DNA from: a virus
Lineage: Duplodnaviria > Heunggongvirae > Uroviricota > Caudoviricetes
Direction: 5' to 3' (one strand)
IMG/VR virus record: IMGVR_UViG_2778261676_000003
Span: 1-8,625 of that record
Length of the DNA stretch: 8,625 bases
Numbering within the stretch: the stretch's first letter is position 1; each line of letters starts with the position of its first letter. The translations under genes were made by a program, and so were the position numbers. Below are positions 1 to 8,625 of this stretch, one piece after another. The notes below the pieces were generated by a model. The model was not told where the DNA came from. It saw only the letters and a program-made list of their open reading frames with translations, and did no database searches.

Positions 1-201
1 TTACCCATTGGCGCGGCTTAAGAGCTTATTTTTGAATTCACAGTGGTCACGATATAACCATCTTGCTCGCCCGTGGATAACTTTGGCTTTTGGCAGGTCG
101 CCGGACTTAATCCGGTCGTAGATGAAGGTTTTACCGAAGCCAGTATCGGCCATGATGAATTTCAAATCAACCAGTGAATCAGGTTGTAGTTCGTGTTGCA
201 T
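1..201 (-). CDS. torI: Excisionase / recombination directionality factor of the AlpA-Xis winged-helix family (TorI-like, 66 aa)
   Basis: Complete 66-aa ORF (ATG at 199-201, TAA at 1-3). The translation MQHELQPDSLVDLKFIMADTGFGKTFIYDRIKSGDLPKAKVIHGRARWLYRDHCEFKNKLLSRANG has the AlpA/Xis helix-turn-helix signature and matches my recollection of E. coli K-12 TorI (the KplE1 excisionase). The gene symbol is from memory and should be confirmed by BLAST. Confidence 0.85.
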   Translation of the reverse strand: MQHELQPDSLVDLKFIMADTGFGKTFIYDRIKSGDLPKAKVIHGRARWLYRDHCEFKNKLLSRANG

Positions 202-220
202 GAGTGCTATCTCCGAATAG

Positions 221-236
221 GGAATCGAACCTGCAA
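221..236 (-). other. tRNA T-arm-like 16-mer (minus-strand TTGCAGGTTCGATTCC); candidate att-core relic or recombinase-site remnant
   Basis: Plus strand 221-236 ggaatcgaacctgcaa is the reverse complement of TTGCAGGTTCGATTCC, which contains the canonical tRNA T-loop GGTTCGATTCC. As I recall the sequence it is identical to the T-arm segment of E. coli tRNA-Arg(CCU) argW. The flanking bases do not complete a tRNA, as there is no matching acceptor stem or CCA end. Confidence 0.4.
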
Positions 237-243
237 ATCAGGC

Positions 244-268
244 AATAAAAAACCGCCATCAGGCGGCT
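244..268 (-). terminator. Rho-independent terminator (minus strand) downstream of ORF 310..510 and upstream of torI
   Basis: On the minus strand: CCGCC-TGAT-GGCGG hairpin (plus 253-266) followed directly by TTTTTTATT (plus A-run 247-252). Confidence 0.6.
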
Positions 269-309
269 TGGTGTTCTTTCAGTTCTTCAATTCGAATATT
301 GGTTACGTC

Positions 310-510
310 TTATTCGATGCGTACTCCTGGTATTTCGCCTTTTGATATTGCTAAGTCATAAATTTGCGCGGCACTATATCCATCTCGCATCCATGAATCT
401 AAGGCGCGAACAGCCTCGCTACGCTTTTTATCTTCTCTCTCATTTTTGATATCAACGAGGACATCAACGCAATTAAGGCAAATGTGGATTTTGTCCTTAC
501 ATTCGATCAT
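310..510 (-). CDS. Hypothetical small protein (66 aa), possibly the C-terminal remnant of a zinc-ribbon protein
   Basis: ATG-initiated ORF with a weak ribosome-binding site. The in-frame stretch just upstream of the ATG encodes CSLCGG, and the ORF contains CLNC, so a CxxC...CxxC zinc ribbon appears split by the start position. No confident family assignment. Confidence 0.3.
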   Translation of the reverse strand: MIECKDKIHICLNCVDVLVDIKNEREDKKRSEAVRALDSWMRDGYSAAQIYDLAISKGEIPGVRIE

Positions 511-618
511 GGCTGCTTTACCATGATTTCCGCCACACAGTGAGCATAAATCTTCAGGGTCTGACTGTTATTTCTGTAACGTTAAAGGGTTGAATGTTGA
601 ACAGGCCATAATCATCTC

Positions 619-646
619 CATAAAACAAAACTCGCCGTAGCGAGTT
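619..646 (-). terminator. Rho-independent terminator (minus strand) downstream of the 767..1260 small-gene operon
   Basis: On the minus strand: 7-bp stem AACTCGC / GCGAGTT (plus 629-635 and 640-646) with a 4-nt loop, followed by TTTTGTTTTA. It lies inside the track ORF 554..754, which argues against that ORF. Confidence 0.5.
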
Positions 647-766
647 CAGATAAAAGAAATCCCCGCGAGTGCGAGGATTGTTATTGTCTTTTCTTCGTGC
701 ATTTGTCGCACTTTCGGCACCATCCAGATAGGCACATCCGTCCGCAATTAACACATATAGGCCACA

Positions 767-1045
767 TCATTTTTCCTCTTTTGGTTTATGAATCTGAATG
801 GTCATGCCGCTTTGAGTGGTGACTACAATGACAGAACCAGGCTGAAGACTGTTAAGATTGAATGCTTCGTAAAACGAATCCAAGGCCAGCGCTTTTTTAT
901 TCTTTCGGTTCCACCAACGCCATCCCTTGCTACAGGCTACACTGACAATCCACTGCCCACTCCTGTAAGCCATATAAAACCAGATGAGCAAAACCTGAAG
1001 GAATGCTATCCAGTCAATAATCGTATATTTCGCGAAGGAGTCCAT
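767..1045 (-). CDS. Hypothetical small membrane protein (about 92 aa; one predicted transmembrane helix followed by a basic W/R/K-rich segment)
   Basis: Strong Shine-Dalgarno AGGAGGTG 5 nt upstream of the ATG at 1043-1045. The track places the start at the GTG at 1046-1048. The stop of the upstream ORF overlaps this start (TGATG), indicating translational coupling. Hydrophobic stretch TIIDWIAFLQVLLIWFYMAY, then KGWRWWNRKNKK. Confidence 0.6.
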   Translation of the reverse strand: MDSFAKYTIIDWIAFLQVLLIWFYMAYRSGQWIVSVACSKGWRWWNRKNKKALALDSFYEAFNLNSLQPGSVIVVTTQSGMTIQIHKPKEEK

Positions 1046-1260
1046 CACTTCACCTCCTGCTGCGGTGCTGCTGGCATTTCACGCCAGTGCGTAACTGAGT
1101 GCGGATCCGGATATTCGGTGCCATCATCCCAGCGATTGCCATTCCACATTGCAGACCACATCTCACCGTCTTCATACATGACCATTACCGGAATTAACTT
1201 ATCGCGCCAGAAGCGCAGCAGGCTATCAGATTTGCAGAGCGTGAAGGAGTTCCTCTGCAC
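1045..1260 (-). CDS. Hypothetical small Trp-rich, mildly acidic protein (up to 71 aa; start uncertain)
   Basis: ORF ends with TGA at 1045-1047, overlapping the start of the downstream membrane-protein gene. The track start at 1260 is a GTG with a poor ribosome-binding site. Internal ATGs (codons 26 and 28) would give a 44-46 aa product. Confidence 0.45.
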   Translation of the reverse strand: MQRNSFTLCKSDSLLRFWRDKLIPVMVMYEDGEMWSAMWNGNRWDDGTEYPDPHSVTHWREMPAAPQQEVK

Positions 1261-1299
1261 ACCACAGACCTGTTACAACCAACTTCCCGCGTCGGAAAA

Positions 1300-2463
1300 A
1301 TGGCGCAGACTACAGCAGAAAATATCCCTCTGGCTGGCACAAGCGGAATGAGAGCAACGCAACAGGAAGCGAGAAGCCAGTTGGTGCAGAGATTTGCTGA
1401 TAAATTTGGTGAGTATGATCCAGCGGTTGTTATTGACAGCCTTAAAGCGAAAACATCAGGAATTCGTCGTGCCGCCGGTAATCGACTGGAGCAGGTTCAG
1501 AATGCTATGGCTGGAGTAAACATTCAGCCTGTGCGAGCAATTCAGCAGATTGATACTGAGATATCTAACCTGCAGAAGCTTGGTAAGGTCGCTGATAACG
1601 AGACGATTTCAAAACTTCAATCCTATCGTGATGAGCTTGTTCGCAATGCTGGTCCTGATGGTCCGGTAAATCTGGATTTGAAGCAATTAAGCGATCTGCG
1701 CAGCCAGTTCAGAATGGATGTGAAGGGTGAGCGACCAGTGTTACCAAACCGTTCCGATGCTGCCATTCAGCGCGTTTACAAGGCAATGACTGACGATATC
1801 AATGGTGCCATTGGTCAGAATCTTGGCAACGATACTCTCCGTAAATATCAGCAGGCCAATGCCGTCTACGCTGACGAAGCGGCGAAACTAAAGAATACCA
1901 GGCTGAAGAATGTTCTCATGAAAGGCGACCTGACGCCGGAAGTTGTCAACAACATGCTATTCAGCAAGAACAAATCGGAAATTAAGACTCTGTATAACTC
2001 AGTTGGTCGTGTTGGCAGGGCGCAAATGCGCAATGGCATCATTGGAAAGGCAATGGAGAAATCTGGCGGATCCCCTGACCAGTTCCTTCGACAGCTTAAC
2101 ATCCTGCAAAACCAGACTGGCATCACATTTAAAGGTCAGGATGCTGCTTATCTGAAAGGATTAAAAAACTACCTGCAATCCACGCAGCAGGCTGCAAAAG
2201 CGGCAGTAACAACACCCACAGGGCAGCAAACTATTCCGTTCATTATAGGGTATGGGACGGCAATGAACCCGGCGACAACTGGCGCAGCAGTAAGCTACGG
2301 ACTTCTTACTCGCGCCTATGAGAGCGAGCCATTCAGAAATGCAATGCTCCGAATGGCAAACACCCCACGCGGATCAACAGCGTTTGAGAAAGCCATGCAG
2401 CAGGCACAAAAGGCCATTAACGCCCTGACTCAGGGGGCTAAGTCTGATGCGTTGTCAGAATAG
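1300..2463 (+). CDS. Hypothetical phage protein, 387 aa, Q/A/N-rich with predicted coiled regions; possibly a DNA-injection (ejection) protein-like remnant by synteny
   Basis: Long ORF with ATG at 1300 and TAG at 2461-2463, and a weak ribosome-binding site (GGA). It sits immediately upstream of mnt and the tailspike, the position gene 16 occupies in P22-like phages, and its composition resembles ejection proteins. The functional call is by position and composition only. Confidence 0.7.
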   Translation: MAQTTAENIPLAGTSGMRATQQEARSQLVQRFADKFGEYDPAVVIDSLKAKTSGIRRAAGNRLEQVQNAMAGVNIQPVRAIQQIDTEISNLQKLGKVADNETISKLQSYRDELVRNAGPDGPVNLDLKQLSDLRSQFRMDVKGERPVLPNRSDAAIQRVYKAMTDDINGAIGQNLGNDTLRKYQQANAVYADEAAKLKNTRLKNVLMKGDLTPEVVNNMLFSKNKSEIKTLYNSVGRVGRAQMRNGIIGKAMEKSGGSPDQFLRQLNILQNQTGITFKGQDAAYLKGLKNYLQSTQQAAKAAVTTPTGQQTIPFIIGYGTAMNPATTGAAVSYGLLTRAYESEPFRNAMLRMANTPRGSTAFEKAMQQAQKAINALTQGAKSDALSE

Positions 2464-2552
2464 CTTCGCAAACACCAGGAACGTGCAAAAACCAAATATG
2501 TAGAACGCAATATTCAGCATATCTCTTTGCATATATCCTCCGTAACTGATAG

Positions 2553-2846
2553 TTAGCTGCTGTCTTTTTTATATAGCTCTTTGAGCGTATCAAAGACAAT
2601 TTTCTTAACCATATCAGATTGTTGTTCTGCCATACGCTCTGCATCGTCAATGTAAACTGATGCAGAGTTTTGTTTATCCAATGATTCCTCAATCGCTGCA
2701 ATTATCTCTGAGTTCAGCGACCTGTTATTCATCTTCGCACGCTGCTTAATTTTCGCGTGGAGTTCATGCGGAAGTCTCAAGTGAAACTGCGCCTCGTCGT
2801 ATTTGCTGTACATCCTTGATGCCTCACCAGTTGGGTGGAATGGCAT
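2553..2846 (-). CDS. mnt: Mnt-like ribbon-helix-helix (Arc/MetJ superfamily) transcriptional repressor
   Basis: Translation contains QFHLRLPHELHAKIKQRAKMNNRSLNSEIIAAIEESL (RHH motif) and the C-terminus DAERMAEQQSDMVKKIVFDTLKELYKKDSS, closely resembling the P22 Mnt C-terminus (...DAERLADEQSELVKKMVFDTLKDLYKK..) as I recall it. AGGT ribosome-binding site 4 nt before the ATG at 2844-2846. An alternative ATG at 2811-2813 would give 86 aa. Confidence 0.85.
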   Translation of the reverse strand: MPFHPTGEASRMYSKYDEAQFHLRLPHELHAKIKQRAKMNNRSLNSEIIAAIEESLDKQNSASVYIDDAERMAEQQSDMVKKIVFDTLKELYKKDSS

Positions 2847-2934
2847 CGTAACCTACTGGATAAATACTCAATAGTACCATTTCTGTATGCAATCACATCA
2901 TGGTTGCATCATATCATTCGTCTGGAGCAATGAA
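2847..2934. promoter_or_regulatory. Divergent intergenic region between mnt and the tailspike gene; contains an inverted repeat ATGCAA-N11-TTGCAT (2887-2909) as a candidate operator
   Basis: 88-bp AT-rich spacer between divergently oriented start codons, with 6-bp inverted-repeat arms. Promoter hexamers are not confidently assignable by eye. Confidence 0.35.
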
Positions 2935-5091
2935 ATGTCAGATATCACCGCAAATGTTGTGGTAAGCATGCCTTCGCAACTCTTCACTATGGCTCGTTCT
3001 TTTAAAGCCGTAGCCAATGGCAAAATTTATATCGGTAAAATTGACACTGACCCGGTAAATCCTGAAAACCAGATTCAGGTTTATGTGGAGAACGAAGACG
3101 GCTCTCACGTTCCTGTTTCGCAACCAATCATCATTAACGCTGCTGGTTACCCGGTATATAACGGACAGATTGCCAAGTTCGTAACTGTGCAAGGCCATTC
3201 TATGGCTGTTTATGATGCATACGGTGTGCAGCAGTTCTATTTTCCTAATGTGCTGAAGTATGACCCGGATCAGTTTTCTGCAGAATGGCTTGCCAAGATG
3301 TCTGCGCCTGATTCTTATGCATTATTTGGTACATTCTCATCAATAGCAGATCTACGAGCATTTACTGCATACTCATCAGTTAAGGAAAATGGAAGAGTCT
3401 ATGTTGATTCTTATCACCTTGGAACTGGTTATGGCGGAGGATATTTCCGCTGGAATTCAACCAGCACTGATACTGATGACGGAGGCTATACCATTAACCC
3501 AACTGGCAATACTGGAACAGGACGCTGGAAACGTGAATTCGTATCTGCATATTCAGCTCGCACAGTTTCGCCTTTAGAGTTCGGTGCTAAGATGAATGAC
3601 AGCACCTTCGATAGTGCCCCAGCGATCAATGCCGCCATTTCATACCTCAATCCTTACTTTGATGCCTCATATGACTCACATCAAGGCGGGGATGTAACCA
3701 TGCCTGCCGGGATGTTTTACATCAATGACACAATATACGGTTCTCCAAATGTAAGATTGATCGGTACTGGGGGAACGACCGGATTTAGATATTCACGTGC
3801 TGGGTGCTGCATCATCATATCCATGTCAACAATGGATGCAAACAAGGTACAATATGACACTGCTCCTTATAAAATCGACGGTACTGGTAGATATACTGAC
3901 ACCTCAACAGTGGATAATGGGCTGACAATAAGCCACGGCTATTACGGACAGTATTTAGAAAACTTGGTTTTTTTGGGAAATCCAGATCAAAAAGCCAACA
4001 TTCGTATCTGGCGAGTGCCAACGTCAAAGTTAATTGGTGTGGGAACATATGGCTGTCTAACCAACTTCTGGATTAGCGGTTCTTGGGGTACGGCAGTTGA
4101 AAATTGCTTTGCTCAAGGAGCAAAATACGCAACATTTTTGACTCCTCACACCACAGCACTAAACATTGTAGGTGGGTACTTCACTGGAAACACATCGCAA
4201 ACATGGGCAATGGGTTCTGCTCAGTGGTTCCACAGGACTGCCTCTGATTCAAATCGTCCAAATATTGCTTATGTAACAACATTCCTTTATGCGCATGATT
4301 CAGTTGATATCAATATGCATGGAGTTACTTGGGAGGGTTACTATAGGGATTTTGCTTTATTCTACTGCGGTAATGTTAACGTTTTTGGTGGCTATAACGA
4401 AAACTCTGTAATCCCTAGCTCCGAGTATGGTCACACAGTCTGGGTGCACTGTGTAGCCTCTAGGATTAATGCTTATGGAGTATTTCTAAATCATGGGTAT
4501 AAGGATTTCGCCGTTCAGTCAGGAAATTTAATTGACCCATCTACCGGGGCGTTAATCCCTTCTGAAATATCTAACATAAATCTTTATGACCCAAGAGTGG
4601 ACTCGAAGTTTTTACAGATAAACAAAGATCTTGGATACGGCGAATATAGTATATTCATTAGCTGCAAGCATCCTATAACATCAGATCTTGCTGTCACACT
4701 TGCCTCATTAAGAAACTACTCGGCCCAATTTGATGGCCTGCTTGATCAATACACTATGCGGGTTCCCTCAATAACTCCAAATGGAACAACAAGCTTTAGC
4801 TTCCAAATCAGTAATATATCTAGTAATGGTGAGTATAACGTGCGCTTTTTAGCCAGAAACTCTGGCGGCACTTTACATCAGGATATTAGATTTAAAATGC
4901 TAATTGGAAGCGTGGTGTCAGTGACAGGGGTGGAAGAGCGTTCGAAAGTAGGTACTGCAAGCTTGGGCTCACCTTCGGTTAGCTTTGCTTCTGGCACGGT
5001 AACGATAACCTTTAATGGGAATTCAGGACTATATTCTTTATACCGTGTGCAATGCTTGCCTGTTAACAATCAAGTTATTTACAGTTTCTGA
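2935..5091 (+). CDS. Phage tailspike protein: P22-type N-terminal head-binding domain fused to a divergent beta-helix-like receptor-binding/depolymerase domain (718 aa)
   Basis: N-terminus [59 protein letters not shown]...[11 protein letters not shown] closely parallels the P22 gp9 head-binding domain ([43 protein letters not shown]...). GGAG ribosome-binding site 7 nt upstream of the ATG at 2935; the track's upstream start at 2887 adds 16 residues not seen in homologs. Downstream [23 protein letters not shown] resembles the entry motif of pectate-lyase-like beta-helix depolymerases. Stop TGA at 5089-5091. Confidence 0.9.
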
Positions 5092-5097
5092 ATTTAT

Positions 5098-5128
5098 CCC
5101 CCCCCCGTACCCGCGGTGGGGGGGGGGG
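5098..5128. repeat. Homopolymeric inverted repeat C9-GTACCCGCGGT-G11 between convergent stop codons
   Basis: Read directly from the sequence: C-run 5098-5106, G-run 5118-5128, with a central CCGCGG palindrome. It starts 6 nt after the tailspike stop and ends 3 nt before the acetyltransferase stop (TGATCA at 5129-5134). Confidence 0.8.
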
Positions 5129-5131
5129 TGA

Positions 5132-7024
5132 TCACAAAAGAGGGTTTTTATGATTTTTCAAGTAAATCTTAGCCAATTCTCTTGCGCCATAAACATTTAG
5201 ATGTGCATGATCCATGTAAATAAACCTTCCATTTAAATAAACCTTGCAGCCTGAATCCGTGCAAAGGATATCATTTGGGTCTATATAAACTGGTTCTTTG
5301 TAGGAATTCATGATTTCATCTAATGAAATGTTAACATTTACTTTTTTAGCAAGTTCACTGTGGTCATCATTTCCAGATGCAATGTCAGATTTAAACTTGT
5401 TGAATTCCTTATAATCCATACCATTTGGTCTAAGTATTACAATTAGTTTAGCACCATGTGATGATAGGTATTCAAGAGTGGATAAGATGTCGTAACCATC
5501 TGCCTTGAAGTAACTGTCATCATTACCCCAACTAGCCCCTACAATCACGTTTTTATAACCCCTAGCCAAATCAATCCTTTTTTTGTTATAGGATAGCTTT
5601 TCCTCGCTACGGTATTTTGAAACCTTTGTGCCCTCTCTATATGGATTTATATTCATAATTGGTGGGAGCGAGCTTGAAACAGTAACAGCGACTGATTTTC
5701 CTGCATCCTTAGCCAAATAATCAATGAACTCTATGTATGACCCTGCTATCGAATCACCGATCATTATGGTCTCTGGCTTTTTTGTTACATCTCCTATGAT
5801 GCATAAACCATCTTTAGTTAGTGAATAGCTATCATAGCACTGAGAGTATTTGACCTCAGACCTGTTCTCATTTGCAAAATCGTTATTGTTAAATCTATCT
5901 GGGAATCCTTTCTCTGAGGAAGCCCAGAGGAAAATAAGTGAGAAAATTACAAGAGGAAGAATTAATAGAAGCAAGAGCGAAGGCAAGAATCCCATCTTAA
6001 ACTTGCGCACCTTAGTTTCAAAAGCATAAAAGTTGAATATAGAGAGAGCGATTGTTAGTATCAATACCACAAATTTAACAAAAATAGTGAACTCAACACC
6101 CCTATAATTAAGTAGGGCAATTATAGGCCAATGCCACAAATACATTGAATAAGAGATTTTGCCAATGAATATAACTGGTTTTAAACTTAAAACTCTGTTA
6201 ACAATTGGTGTAAAGGATTGATTGGCTCCAGCGATTATTATTAATGCCGCACCCACGCAAGGTATCAAAGCATTATAGCCAGGGAACAAGCTTTCTTTCT
6301 CTATTGAGAAAGAGCTAAATGCAATTAATGTTATACCTAAAATAGAGAAGGCGTTTGATACTTTTGTGGATTCAAATTTGTAATTACTTAGTAATATTGA
6401 AATAACGCCACCAATCATCAACTCAAAAGCCCTGAATGGGAGCATGTAGTATGCAAGCGATGTATATATAAGTGCGCCGTATTGCGAAACAGCAAACAAA
6501 GCAATTATTATCAAAACAAAGATCTGAAGCTCATACTTTCTAAATTTCAATATCACAAATGAAATTATCAAAGGTGCAATTAGATAGTACTGTTCCTCGA
6601 CGGATAAAGACCACGTGTGAAGAAGAGGGATCTGATCGGCGTTCCCTGAGAAATAGCTTGTAGTGTTGAAGTAAAAAAGGAAATTACTGATAGAAAGAAG
6701 AGTGAATATTGCGCTTTTGATCATGTATATAAACTCATCAGGCATCAATATGAAAATTGATGCGACTAATGTTGTAAATAACACGACCAATAAAGATGGC
6801 AAAATTCTCTTGATTCTTCTGTTGTAAAACCCTGAGTATGTGAAACTTCCGTTAGAAATTTCCTTTCTTATTATGGAGGTTATTAGATACCCAGAGATTA
6901 CAAAGAAAATATCTACCCCGATAAATCCGCCCGTAATGAACTGGCTACCAACATGATAGACTATTACCAATAGAACGGCTACTGCACGCAAGCCGTCAAT
7001 GTCTGGTCTATATCTAATCTCCAT
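5132..7024 (-). CDS. Integral-membrane O-acetyltransferase, acyltransferase-3 family with a C-terminal SGNH domain (OafA/Oac-like; likely O-antigen acetylation / serotype conversion), 630 aa
   Basis: N-terminal motif RPDIDGLRAVAVLLVIVYH and multiple hydrophobic segments typical of the acyltransferase-3 fold. C-terminal GDS (IGDSIA) and DHAH blocks typical of SGNH esterase-like domains. ATG at 7022-7024 with a GGGA ribosome-binding site. The gene looks AT-rich by eye. Confidence 0.9.
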   Translation of the reverse strand: MEIRYRPDIDGLRAVAVLLVIVYHVGSQFITGGFIGVDIFFVISGYLITSIIRKEISNGSFTYSGFYNRRIKRILPSLLVVLFTTLVASIFILMPDEFIYMIKSAIFTLLSISNFLFYFNTTSYFSGNADQIPLLHTWSLSVEEQYYLIAPLIISFVILKFRKYELQIFVLIIIALFAVSQYGALIYTSLAYYMLPFRAFELMIGGVISILLSNYKFESTKVSNAFSILGITLIAFSSFSIEKESLFPGYNALIPCVGAALIIIAGANQSFTPIVNRVLSLKPVIFIGKISYSMYLWHWPIIALLNYRGVEFTIFVKFVVLILTIALSIFNFYAFETKVRKFKMGFLPSLLLLLILPLVIFSLIFLWASSEKGFPDRFNNNDFANENRSEVKYSQCYDSYSLTKDGLCIIGDVTKKPETIMIGDSIAGSYIEFIDYLAKDAGKSVAVTVSSSLPPIMNINPYREGTKVSKYRSEEKLSYNKKRIDLARGYKNVIVGASWGNDDSYFKADGYDILSTLEYLSSHGAKLIVILRPNGMDYKEFNKFKSDIASGNDDHSELAKKVNVNISLDEIMNSYKEPVYIDPNDILCTDSGCKVYLNGRFIYMDHAHLNVYGARELAKIYLKNHKNPLL

Positions 7025-7223
7025 AAGGAATCCCTTTTGCTTACCCGTTTAAAATTAATATTTCAGACGCAAAGAAGTATCTTCTTCACATGATGTTGAT
7101 TGCAAACAGTGATCAAGCCATTTCATTACGCAATTCGTCGCTCTTATGCAGTTACAGTCATCATTTTCTACCTACAAAACTAGCGAAGTTGCCAAGTGCC
7201 TGACCTGTGTGAAACGCATATAT

Positions 7224-7251
7224 GCAAACAGCAAACAGCAAACAGCAAACA
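7224..7251. repeat. Tandem heptanucleotide repeat (GCAAACA)x4
   Basis: Four perfect head-to-tail copies read directly (7224-7230, 7231-7237, 7238-7244, 7245-7251), followed by a degenerate CAGCACAG. It lies in the 443-bp intergenic region about 200 bp upstream of the acetyltransferase start and about 215 bp downstream of the integrase stop. Confidence 0.8.
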
Positions 7252-7467
7252 CAGCACAGTGTAATAATGTGTTAACTATGCCAATCGAGGTGTACTTTGC
7301 AAATAGCTTTAACATTTCTTCTATCAGCTAATAATCAAAGGCATGAAGTCTATCATCCAAATCTTAAACGATCGATACTTGCTGTGGTTGATAAGACAAA
7401 ACTGAGACAAACAAAGCTTTGCGCTGGATTGCAAGGCTTTGTGCTCTTCGATAGTGGTTAAGGTGGA

Positions 7468-8625
7468 TCACTCCACCTTTTCATCAATCCAGTCCGCCCA
7501 CCATTGCATCATTTCTCTGCGTTTATCGAGATACTGAGCATGGTTGTAAATCCCACGCACAGAACCGCCGTTGGCATGTGCCAGTTGCACTTCAATAGCA
7601 TCAGCAGGCCATTCGTGCTCGTTCATAATCGTGCTGAATTCATGCCTGAATCCGTGACCGCTTTCCAGACCCTCATAGCCGATTTGTTTGATCACAAGTA
7701 GCACCGCGTTCTCGCAGATTGGCTTTTTCTTATCGTTGCGCCCGGCAAAAACAAACTCTGATACTGGTTTAGTGATGGAGCTTAGCGTAGTGAGAAGTTC
7801 AACCACCTGGTCCGACATCGGGACCACATGAATTTTGCGTCCCTTCATCACACTGGCGTCGATGGTGATAATCCTGTTTTCAAAATCGACGTTCTTCCAT
7901 TGCATGGAACGAAGCTCTTTTGTTCTTAGGGCTGTGTAGCGTAAAACCTTGGTCGCAATGAGCGATACGATGCTTCCTGAAAATGTTGCCAGTGCTTTGT
8001 TAAATGCCGGGATCTGGTCTGCAGGAAGAAACGGGAAGTTTTTCTTGCGGTATCCCTTCATGGCGTCAGCAAGGTCAGGTGCCGGGTTATATTTAGCCCT
8101 ACCAGTGACAATGGCGTAACGGAAAACCTCGCCGCATCTTCTGCGGGCTTTGTTGGCTCGCTCCATTGCACCGCGATCTTCAAATCTGCGGATTACTTCC
8201 AGCAGTTGCATCGGCTCAATATCCTGAATCTCAAGACCGCCGATGATAGGTAAAATGTCGTCATCAAACATTTTTGCAAGTTCATTTGCATAGCCTACTG
8301 ACCAGACTTGCTTCTTGTGCTCGTACCATTCCTTGTAAATCGCACTAAAGGAATTGTTGTTAGACGAAGCCTTTTTCGCCTTTACCGGATCGATGCCGAC
8401 CGAGATGTCTTTCCTCGCAGTCCATGCTTTATCCCTTGCCTCCTGCAAAGTCATAAGCGGATATTTTCCGACGGTCAGTATTTTTTCCTTACCGTCAATC
8501 TTGTAGCGAAGCTGCCATACCTTTTTCCCGGATACAGGAACATAAAGGTACAGGCCATTACCATCGAGAAGGCGGTATGGTTTTTCTTTCGGCTTTGCTG
8601 CTTCAATCTGCTTAACGGTGAGCAT
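7468..8625 (-). CDS. intS: Tyrosine site-specific integrase with an N-terminal arm-binding (DUF4102-type) domain, P4/CP4-57/IntS family (385 aa)
   Basis: N-terminus MLTVKQIEAAKPKEKPYRLLDGNGLYLYVPVSGKKVWQLRYKIDGKEK is the characteristic arm-binding domain of P4-type integrases. C-terminal catalytic-domain residues include ...HGFRHEFST... and ...LAHANGGSVRGIYNH.... The sequence matches my recollection of E. coli K-12 IntS, so the symbol should be confirmed by BLAST. The start codon is the last three bases of the window. Confidence 0.92.
   Translation of the reverse strand: MLTVKQIEAAKPKEKPYRLLDGNGLYLYVPVSGKKVWQLRYKIDGKEKILTVGKYPLMTLQEARDKAWTARKDISVGIDPVKAKKASSNNNSFSAIYKEWYEHKKQVWSVGYANELAKMFDDDILPIIGGLEIQDIEPMQLLEVIRRFEDRGAMERANKARRRCGEVFRYAIVTGRAKYNPAPDLADAMKGYRKKNFPFLPADQIPAFNKALATFSGSIVSLIATKVLRYTALRTKELRSMQWKNVDFENRIITIDASVMKGRKIHVVPMSDQVVELLTTLSSITKPVSEFVFAGRNDKKKPICENAVLLVIKQIGYEGLESGHGFRHEFSTIMNEHEWPADAIEVQLAHANGGSVRGIYNHAQYLDKRREMMQWWADWIDEKVE

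Follow-up and report, generated by a model that had tools for sequence, protein, structure and literature searches.

The 8,625-nucleotide window analysed here (positions 1 to 8,625 of the Caudoviricetes record IMGVR_UViG_2778261676_000003) contains, at positions 767-1260, two overlapping minus-strand open reading frames (ORFs). The original prediction, made without database searches, had described them as a translationally coupled cassette of a small tryptophan-rich protein and a small membrane protein, closed by its own terminator. This region very probably represents a fossil fragment of an accessory operon, the early-left (pL, exo-xis) one of a P22-like or lambdoid prophage, and lies within an 8.9 kb cryptic prophage of the KplE1/CPS-53 type. 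A large internal deletion joined the middle of gp16, a DNA-ejection gene, to the final 52 codons of a gene of the Ea22/EaA type that ends in the DUF551 domain. Downstream of this joint, the remnant retains an intact DUF4752 gene, a 29-residue cysteine-rich ORF, two hairpins, a nonsense-mutated orf312-like gene, and the excisionase gene torI.

The first ORF (ORF1; 1045-1260, minus strand; 71 amino acids from a GTG) is a composite. Its last 52 residues (DKLIPVMVMYEDGEMW...PQQEVK) are encoded at 1048-1203, with the TGA stop at 1045-1047, and are identical to the C-termini of a 178-residue protein of phage Dewey and a 195-residue protein (orf588) of phage H19J. The first 19 residues were unrelated to these proteins in the alignment; their codons (1204-1260) are the antisense of the gp16 coding sequence and do not belong to the ancestral coding sequence of the DUF551 gene. 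In a megablast search against phages, positions 500-1203 matched many lambdoid, P22-like, and Shiga toxin (Stx) phages at 97-99% identity, and no match extended past 1203. The plus strand from 1204 to 2463 encodes residues 227-645 of a 645-residue gp16-family protein, with 416 of 419 residues identical to the protein of locus L004 (BLASTP). This 3' part was called as a 387-residue ORF from an internal ATG at 1300, and the source gene call matches the Pfam family Phage_P22_gp16. Because the DUF551 homology ends at 1203 and the gp16 coding sequence begins at 1204, the boundary between these two positions (1200-1207) is a deletion joint. A 5'-truncated DUF551 gene on the minus strand stands there head-to-head with a plus-strand gp16 gene truncated at codon 227, and both of the genes that now diverge from the joint have lost their promoters along with their 5' ends. 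The phage homology on the left stops at 1203 and the gp16 homology on the right begins at 1200-1204; the parental homologies thus overlap by approximately 4 nucleotides, as a deletion by illegitimate recombination would be expected to leave.

ORF1 matched the Pfam family DUF551 (PF04448) with 42.3 bits (cut-off 22, E = 1.4e-10), although the domain is incomplete: only profile positions 26-68 of 68 were covered, and the N-terminal third (1-25) is gone. Full-length relatives are 178-336 amino acids long and contain DUF551 positions 1-68, often together with an Ead_Ea22 domain, as in those of HK106 (gp32), ST104 (orf8), and phiv205-1. Only the last 52 codons (1045-1203 with the stop) of the supposed tryptophan-rich protein of 45-71 residues are therefore genuine, as the 3' end of a much longer gene, and the small protein itself is an artefact of the deletion joint. 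The stump resembles the exo-xis proteins of the Ea22/EaA type with a C-terminal DUF551 (Ea22_V2 of Stx phages, EaA-like proteins of P22, and YfdS of CPS-53) in its gene position upstream of xis and in its last 52 residues, which match the C-terminal two-thirds of DUF551. Unlike these proteins, it lacks the N-terminal and coiled-coil parts as well as DUF551 positions 1-25. DUF551 has been described as a portable domain that also occurs in CPS-53 YfdS (PMC10834534), and ea22 has been reported to be pro-lysogenic (PMC7093339). Such a role cannot be assumed for the ORF1 fragment.

The chimeric 71-residue ORF that spans the joint was found by exact look-up in three assembled contigs, which makes an assembly artefact unlikely. 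One of them, GCA_002518955.1, is an E. coli-type chromosomal contig of 511 kb. No record spanning the joint was detected by megablast in 5,426 complete E. coli genomes, and an exact search of the GTDB species-representative genomes gave 0 matches. The joint is thus specific to one lineage.

The window as a whole is an entire cryptic prophage of the KplE1/CPS-53 type that is found between argW and dsdC in E. coli; it descends from a P22-like phage and has undergone heavy deletion. At one edge of the window lies the excisionase gene torI (1-201, minus strand), which ends there with its stop codon; at the other lies the integrase gene intS (7468-8625, minus strand), which begins there with its start codon. 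Both genes were identified by comparison with annotated E. coli chromosomes. The torI product, a recombination directionality factor, matched the excisionase family phrog_66, and the gene is annotated as torI in three of the compared loci (L003, L004, and L018). In prophages of this type, torI and intS are the recombination genes located at opposite ends of the prophage, between dsdC and the tRNA-Arg gene argW. The gene order on GCA_002518955.1 was mlaA-yfdC-intS-AT3-SGNH acyltransferase-tailspike-mnt-gp16' (387 amino acids)-DUF551' (71 amino acids)-DUF4752-torI-dsdC-dsdX-dsdA. The family description of the KplE1 type includes a 16-nucleotide attachment core, CTGCAGGGGACACCAT (PMC2951348). Exactly two copies of this core were present in the source contig (L017, 2460-2475 and 11334-11349), 8.9 kb apart, with the element from intS to torI between them. 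The argW/dsdC site, the duplicated core, and the location of intS and torI at opposite ends thus all agree with this prophage type. A small circular element, with the integrase start at 8625 and the excisionase stop at 1, was also considered for the window and was rejected in favor of the KplE1 arrangement, in which intS and torI occupy opposite ends.

The comparison with KplE1/CPS-53 of E. coli K-12 gave a similar picture at the ends and a different one inside. Both are defective elements of approximately 9-10 kb that share the insertion site, the neighboring genes, the duplicated 16-nucleotide core, and homologous intS and torI ends. Positions 1-251 of the window were 97% identical to the K-12 torI region, and the torI and intS modules were 97% and 95% identical to those of CPS-53, respectively, with nothing else in common. 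The internal content is wholly different: K-12 harbors gtrABS (yfdGHI) and yfdK-yfdT, whereas the window keeps gp16', mnt, the tailspike gene, and the AT3-SGNH acyltransferase gene. At the place equivalent to the two ORFs, K-12 contains yfdS (DUF551) followed by yfdT, which is not a DUF4752 gene. Because intact relatives of the prophage are 39-41 kb long, roughly 30 kb has been lost by internal deletion; pL and the immunity region went with it, as did the genes for replication, lysis, and the head.

The second ORF (ORF2; 767-1048, minus strand, 93 amino acids from a GTG, or 92 amino acids with the ATG at 1045-1043 as start) is a DUF4752 gene in intact form, with 92 codons plus a stop (767-1045). 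It matched Pfam DUF4752 (PF15944) over profile positions 2-84 of 84, with 124 bits (cut-off 27, E = 2.5e-36), and phrog_667 with an E-value of 2e-38. The protein is 100% identical to gp31 of phage HK106 and 97-99% identical to the copies in about 50 sequenced phages. Since the products of both ORFs are members of Pfam families and are 98-100% identical to annotated phage or prophage proteins, the earlier view that neither was recognizable does not stand. The stretch 681-1203 was matched in 625 of the 5,426 complete E. coli genomes. Profile searches recovered approximately 118 DUF4752 clusters at 90% identity, nearly all of about 94 amino acids, and only 46 representatives at 50% identity among 1.84 billion proteins. 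The named members all come from Enterobacterales (Escherichia, Salmonella, Enterobacter, Citrobacter, Kosakonia, Lelliottia, Cronobacter, Raoultella, and Edwardsiella). Judged by these searches, the family is small, narrow, and confined to this order. Phage examples such as HK106 gp31, ST104 orf7, and SPN1S_0050 share with ORF2 a length of approximately 92-94 amino acids, the early-operon position, and a start codon that overlaps the upstream stop. The proteins are no different from ORF2; the gene in the window, by comparison, lies in a promoterless prophage remnant.

The sequence of ORF2 contains one strongly hydrophobic 19-mer (residues 8-26, mean Kyte-Doolittle value 1.78). Its C-terminal flank (residues 28-52) has seven lysine or arginine and zero aspartate or glutamate residues, whereas the N-terminal flank has one of each class. 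ORF2 contains six tryptophans in 92 residues, and the conserved features of the family include D11 and W22 within the hydrophobic span, a juxtamembrane GWRWWNRK(D) motif, LxxDSFYEAF, and PG...T..G..I. The earlier description of a single-pass membrane protein of about 92 residues with a basic juxtamembrane segment rich in tryptophan, arginine, and lysine was thus borne out. By hydropathy and the positive-inside rule, ORF2 is predicted to be a bitopic inner-membrane protein with its N-terminus outside and its C-terminus inside. An AlphaFold2 (AF2) model built with 77 homologues contained a long helix (3-45), a short helix (50-61), and a beta-hairpin (72-86). A sequence-profile search of the PDB with the 77-sequence alignment gave chance matches only (E >= 0.67), and Foldseek searches of the model returned nothing below an E-value of 2.4 in the PDB and a single uninformative match, 97% identical to the query, in BFVD. 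Furthermore, DUF4752, the 29-residue ORF, and the orf312-like ORF had no match among the PADLOC-DB defence families, and a full-length DUF551 protein had a match at chance level only (E = 0.037). A scan of all the small proteins against NCBIfam found no match, and no paper mentioning "DUF4752" was retrieved by a full-text search of the literature library used. Structures, defence families, and curated NCBI families thus yielded no functional lead for DUF4752.

P22 SieA, HK97 gp15, and T4 Imm are small phage inner-membrane exclusion proteins. The likeness to ORF2 is one of type: a small bitopic membrane protein from the accessory region of a temperate phage. In contrast, no similarity in sequence or structure was detected between them, and the DUF4752 gene is coupled within an early lytic operon and is apparently not expressed from a lysogenic promoter of its own.

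Several variants of the gene were also observed. The DUF4752 gene contains a run of six A residues (893-898, codons 49-51), and in two protein clusters, P0024 and P0025, with 19 member sequences, a frameshift directly after this run produces a 73-residue variant without the C-terminal domain. Sequencing error, decay, or slippage could each account for this. Cluster P0006 (154 amino acids, from a Logan contig of 7.2 kb) is an integrase fragment fused in frame to a complete DUF4752, that is, a second, independent deletion remnant in which the gene was kept.

The signals that link the two ORFs were as previously described. The ORF1 stop (TGA, 1047-1045) and the ORF2 start (ATG, 1045-1043) overlap by one base (A), forming TGATG, and a near-perfect Shine-Dalgarno sequence, AGGAGGTG, could be read at 1058-1051, 5 nucleotides before the ATG and within the last codons of the upstream gene. 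The unit does not end with these two genes, as had been supposed. A third coupled ORF of 29 amino acids with six cysteines (MMWPICVNCGRMCLSGWCRKCDKCTKKRQ; 681-770, minus strand) follows, and its ATG start and the stop of DUF4752 overlap in the sequence ATGA. In HK106 this ORF carries the annotation gp30, and tblastn detected copies with 64-76% identity in unrelated phages (Escherichia C1/S192, Salmonella KFS-SE2, and Citrobacter Tr1). The ORF probably encodes a genuine micro-protein that binds zinc and moves independently of DUF4752. Because of its annotation in HK106 and its diverged homologues, the 29-residue ORF was preferred over a 33-residue ORF with a TTG start (646-747) that is annotated in Dewey and was judged less likely to be real.

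A terminator scan and RNA folding identified two tandem GC-rich hairpins on the minus strand (628-679), each followed by a U-rich run. The hairpin at 647-628 (-11.9 kcal/mol, z = -4.3) corresponds to the single terminator that had been predicted to end the unit and is real, together with its T-run. The second hairpin at 679-658 (-13.1 kcal/mol, z = -5.2) had been overlooked; the pair had a z-score of -4.8 against shuffled sequences. Both have the form of a rho-independent terminator, with a stable GC-rich hairpin and a U-run directly after it, and therefore look like candidate intrinsic terminators. Their sequence is identical in phages Dewey and H19J, and the operon's next gene has its start codon immediately after them. 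This gene (310-621, minus strand) is a homologue of H19J orf312 (phrog_3680, cysteine-rich). A DNA alignment with H19J revealed a TAC-to-TAA nonsense change at codon 18 (568-570), which leaves open a 66-residue ORF (310-510) that covers profile positions 34-99 of 99; an intact 99-residue copy is present in L003. The segment contains a CxxC...CxxC arrangement with a weak match to a ClpX-type zinc finger, and the premature TAA is another sign of decay in the remnant. An Rfam scan of the whole window (E up to 0.1) detected no RNA families.

The placement of the unit in an early-left accessory region agrees with the gene order in intact phages. In HK106, ST104, and phiv205-1, the order is erf-abc2-...-Ea22/DUF551-DUF4752-...-xis-int, so that the homologous block has the recombination genes on one side and xis on the other and adjoins a gene of the Ea22 family. 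In the window, the block is located upstream of torI on the same strand, and the predicted direction of transcription toward the excisionase was correct. In this region of lambdoid phages, ea22 is followed by a variable set of small genes before xis, all of which are early genes expressed from pL (PMC8614690). In the intact phages, the DUF551 and DUF4752 genes are located in the middle of the operon, with overlapping stops and starts.

The survey of upstream partners covered roughly ten DUF4752 contexts. In lambdoid phages of E. coli and Salmonella, the gene upstream of DUF4752 usually ends in DUF551. These pairings are 95-100% identical to each other, represent one DNA module, and count as one observation. 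In other phages, DUF4752 is preceded by different genes, including a Rv2179c-like exonuclease gene in Edwardsiella prophages, a gene for an unknown protein of 153-157 amino acids in Enterobacter prophages (L010-L012), and genes for unknown proteins of 257 amino acids in one E. coli prophage and 201 amino acids in Salmonella phage SPN1S. Conversely, DUF551 genes occur without DUF4752 in L004 (followed by Eag), in L013 (followed by DUF4406), and in K-12, in which yfdS is followed by yfdT. The two families therefore do not keep together as neighbors across the diverged genomes compared. What is conserved across contexts is the style of packing, namely a stop/start overlap of 1 or 4 nucleotides with any upstream gene, and such overlaps are ordinary in compact phage early operons. 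Because the gene in front of DUF4752 changes from phage to phage, the pairing is not a conserved one; DUF4752 is not tied to DUF551, and the two are mosaic neighbors and not a dedicated system.

Two observations concern the mobility of these genes. The Enterobacter copies of DUF4752 (L010-L012, 3001-3285; approximately 46% identity) belong to the nin region of pR, with the replication genes on one side and ninB-ninE-ninG-Q on the other; because of this location, DUF4752 moves between the pL exo-xis and the pR nin early operons. K-12 YfdT (L009, 11874-12179) starts like the DUF551 protein of Dewey (MTTFT.KELI) and ends in ...QQEVK like the ORF1 stump (window 1045-1062), and it has neither a DUF551 nor a DUF4752 domain. 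The 3' end common to YfdT and the stump supplies the following gene with its Shine-Dalgarno sequence and may mark a joint at which mosaic recombination recurs. YfdT was also considered as a DUF4752 relative owing to the same position after yfdS, and was rejected, as it had no Pfam match and an hhalign probability of 0.15%.

In the intact phage, this string of genes would have been transcribed from pL, and DUF4752 and the 29-residue peptide would have been delayed-early products. The hairpins would terminate transcription, and N-type antitermination would read through them. Translation of DUF4752 would depend on coupling with the gene before it (UGAUG) together with a strong Shine-Dalgarno sequence of its own. 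The protein would lie with its N-terminus outside and its C-terminus in the cytoplasm, with the tryptophan- and arginine-rich segment at the inner face of the membrane. Early in lytic growth, its C-terminal cytoplasmic domain of approximately 40 residues probably binds a partner from the host or the phage. A membrane-anchored adaptor with a cytoplasmic mini-domain that binds such a partner is our best guess for DUF4752, at low confidence. The remnant no longer has pL, the antiterminator gene N, or the 5' portion of the upstream gene, whose stump lacks a Shine-Dalgarno sequence. A crude consensus scan, from which weak or non-consensus promoters could escape, detected no sigma-70 consensus on the minus strand upstream of the unit. 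Because of these losses and the lack of a consensus, the most likely state of the unit in the remnant is silence, or expression by no more than stray read-through. The intactness of the DUF4752 ORF would reflect a recent deletion, and not a system formed with the stump.

Some points weigh against this reading of a silent fossil or against parts of it. Neither the DUF4752 ORF nor its Shine-Dalgarno sequence shows any damage. Another E. coli genome contains a copy of the 523 bp at 681-1203 with 100% identity, which fits a recent deletion and would also fit selection. Weak, non-consensus, or read-through transcription, for instance from the mnt side, may occur and is compatible with the promoter scan. 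The antitermination through the hairpins is drawn from general lambdoid biology; the topology and the cytoplasmic C-terminal domain would follow solely from hydropathy and the positive-inside rule; and the AF2 model is of low confidence (predicted local distance difference test, pLDDT, 64.8; predicted template modelling score, pTM, 0.31).

Three other explanations were weighed. The longest ORF over the interval is a plus-strand ORF of 187 amino acids (788-1351), which on account of its length might be taken for the real gene, with the minus-strand ORFs as its shadows. However, it had no Pfam match, whereas both minus-strand ORFs match Pfam families, and it crosses the deletion joint and therefore cannot be ancestral. 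It runs codon-for-codon antisense to DUF4752, and this in-register frame contains no stops in the near-identical E. coli/Salmonella module but three stops in each of four diverged homologues, whereas the DUF4752 frame is open in all homologues compared, including these four. Of the 16 differences between the window and ST104, 12 affect the third codon position in the minus frame, and 11 codon changes are synonymous versus three non-synonymous. The substitution pattern fits the minus frame and points to purifying selection on DUF4752 in that frame. The plus-strand ORF is a shadow ORF and not a gene, with a negligible chance of the opposite. Conservation of its frame, which the original prediction had named as a ground for refutation, was thus not borne out, and the minus strand codes, as first proposed. 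A dedicated, self-contained two-gene accessory system (for superinfection exclusion, as a toxin-like pair, or for anti-defence) that functions in its host is also very unlikely. It agrees with the translational coupling and the strong Shine-Dalgarno sequence, which are real, with the position in an accessory region, and with the frequent position of DUF4752, in lambdoid phages of E. coli and Salmonella, behind a protein that has DUF551 at its C-terminus. The latter pairing, however, is one common module and not independent evidence; the partner differs in diverged homologues, and DUF551 proteins occur without DUF4752. Moreover, the small protein is a stump of 52 of 178-336 codons without the N-terminal third of its domain, no PADLOC defence family was matched, and the consensus scan found no promoter belonging to the unit. 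Truncation and partner variability thus largely refute this reading. From the original proposal of an uncharacterized small accessory system, the uncharacterized function of the membrane protein remains, whereas the self-contained pair does not.

The third explanation is that DUF4752 alone, possibly with the 29-residue cysteine-rich peptide, is a retained functional gene of the cryptic prophage that is expressed by read-through or from an unrecognized promoter. A retained gene of this kind would benefit the host, for example by exclusion of incoming phages or by envelope stress tolerance. Its ORF and Shine-Dalgarno sequence are intact while the neighbors are truncated or nonsense-mutated, purifying selection conserves the family across Enterobacterales, the P0006 fusion represents a second remnant that kept the gene, and cryptic-prophage genes have been reported to aid stress resistance (PMC3105296). 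On the other hand, the gene has zero divergence from the copies in intact prophages, so its intactness requires no selection; many partial or frameshifted copies in E. coli genomes indicate that it readily decays; and neither a promoter consensus nor similarity to a defence family was found. Retention is therefore unlikely, although less so than the two-gene system, and a fossil operon piece with a recently stranded DUF4752 gene remains the preferred reading.

Other parts of the remnant were also preserved. A Mnt/Arc repressor gene (2553-2813, minus strand) is apparently intact, and two further genes were kept: one for a tailspike (2887-5091, plus strand) that has a P22 head-binding domain, and one for an AT3-SGNH acyltransferase (5132-7024, minus strand) that is probably an O-antigen acetylase. 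These surface-modifying genes (tailspike and acyltransferase) have outlasted all the head and replication genes.

Everything in this region is of known kinds, namely a KplE1/CPS-53-type prophage, an Ea22/EaA-DUF551 fragment, a DUF4752 gene, and a truncated gp16, and the only new item is the lineage-specific deletion joint. The discovery value is accordingly small, as DUF551 and DUF4752 are catalogued and near-identical proteins occur in dozens of phages and hundreds of E. coli genomes. The value is mainly corrective: the small tryptophan-rich protein is an artefact of the joint, the plus-strand ORF is a shadow, and the pair is a mosaic neighborhood and not a system. It is doubtful, though conceivable, that DUF4752 is an important inner-membrane effector of enterobacterial temperate phages, with its N-terminus out and its C-terminus in, produced early from pL or pR, and that the remnant copy still gives the host a phenotype. 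If this were true, the invariant GWRWWNRK motif and the cytoplasmic mini-domain would act on a membrane-associated target of the host, with anti-defence, exclusion of competing phages, and division or envelope control as candidate roles. DUF4752 is a well-conserved, unstudied small membrane protein of phage early operons and a cheap target for exo-xis and anti-defence screening.

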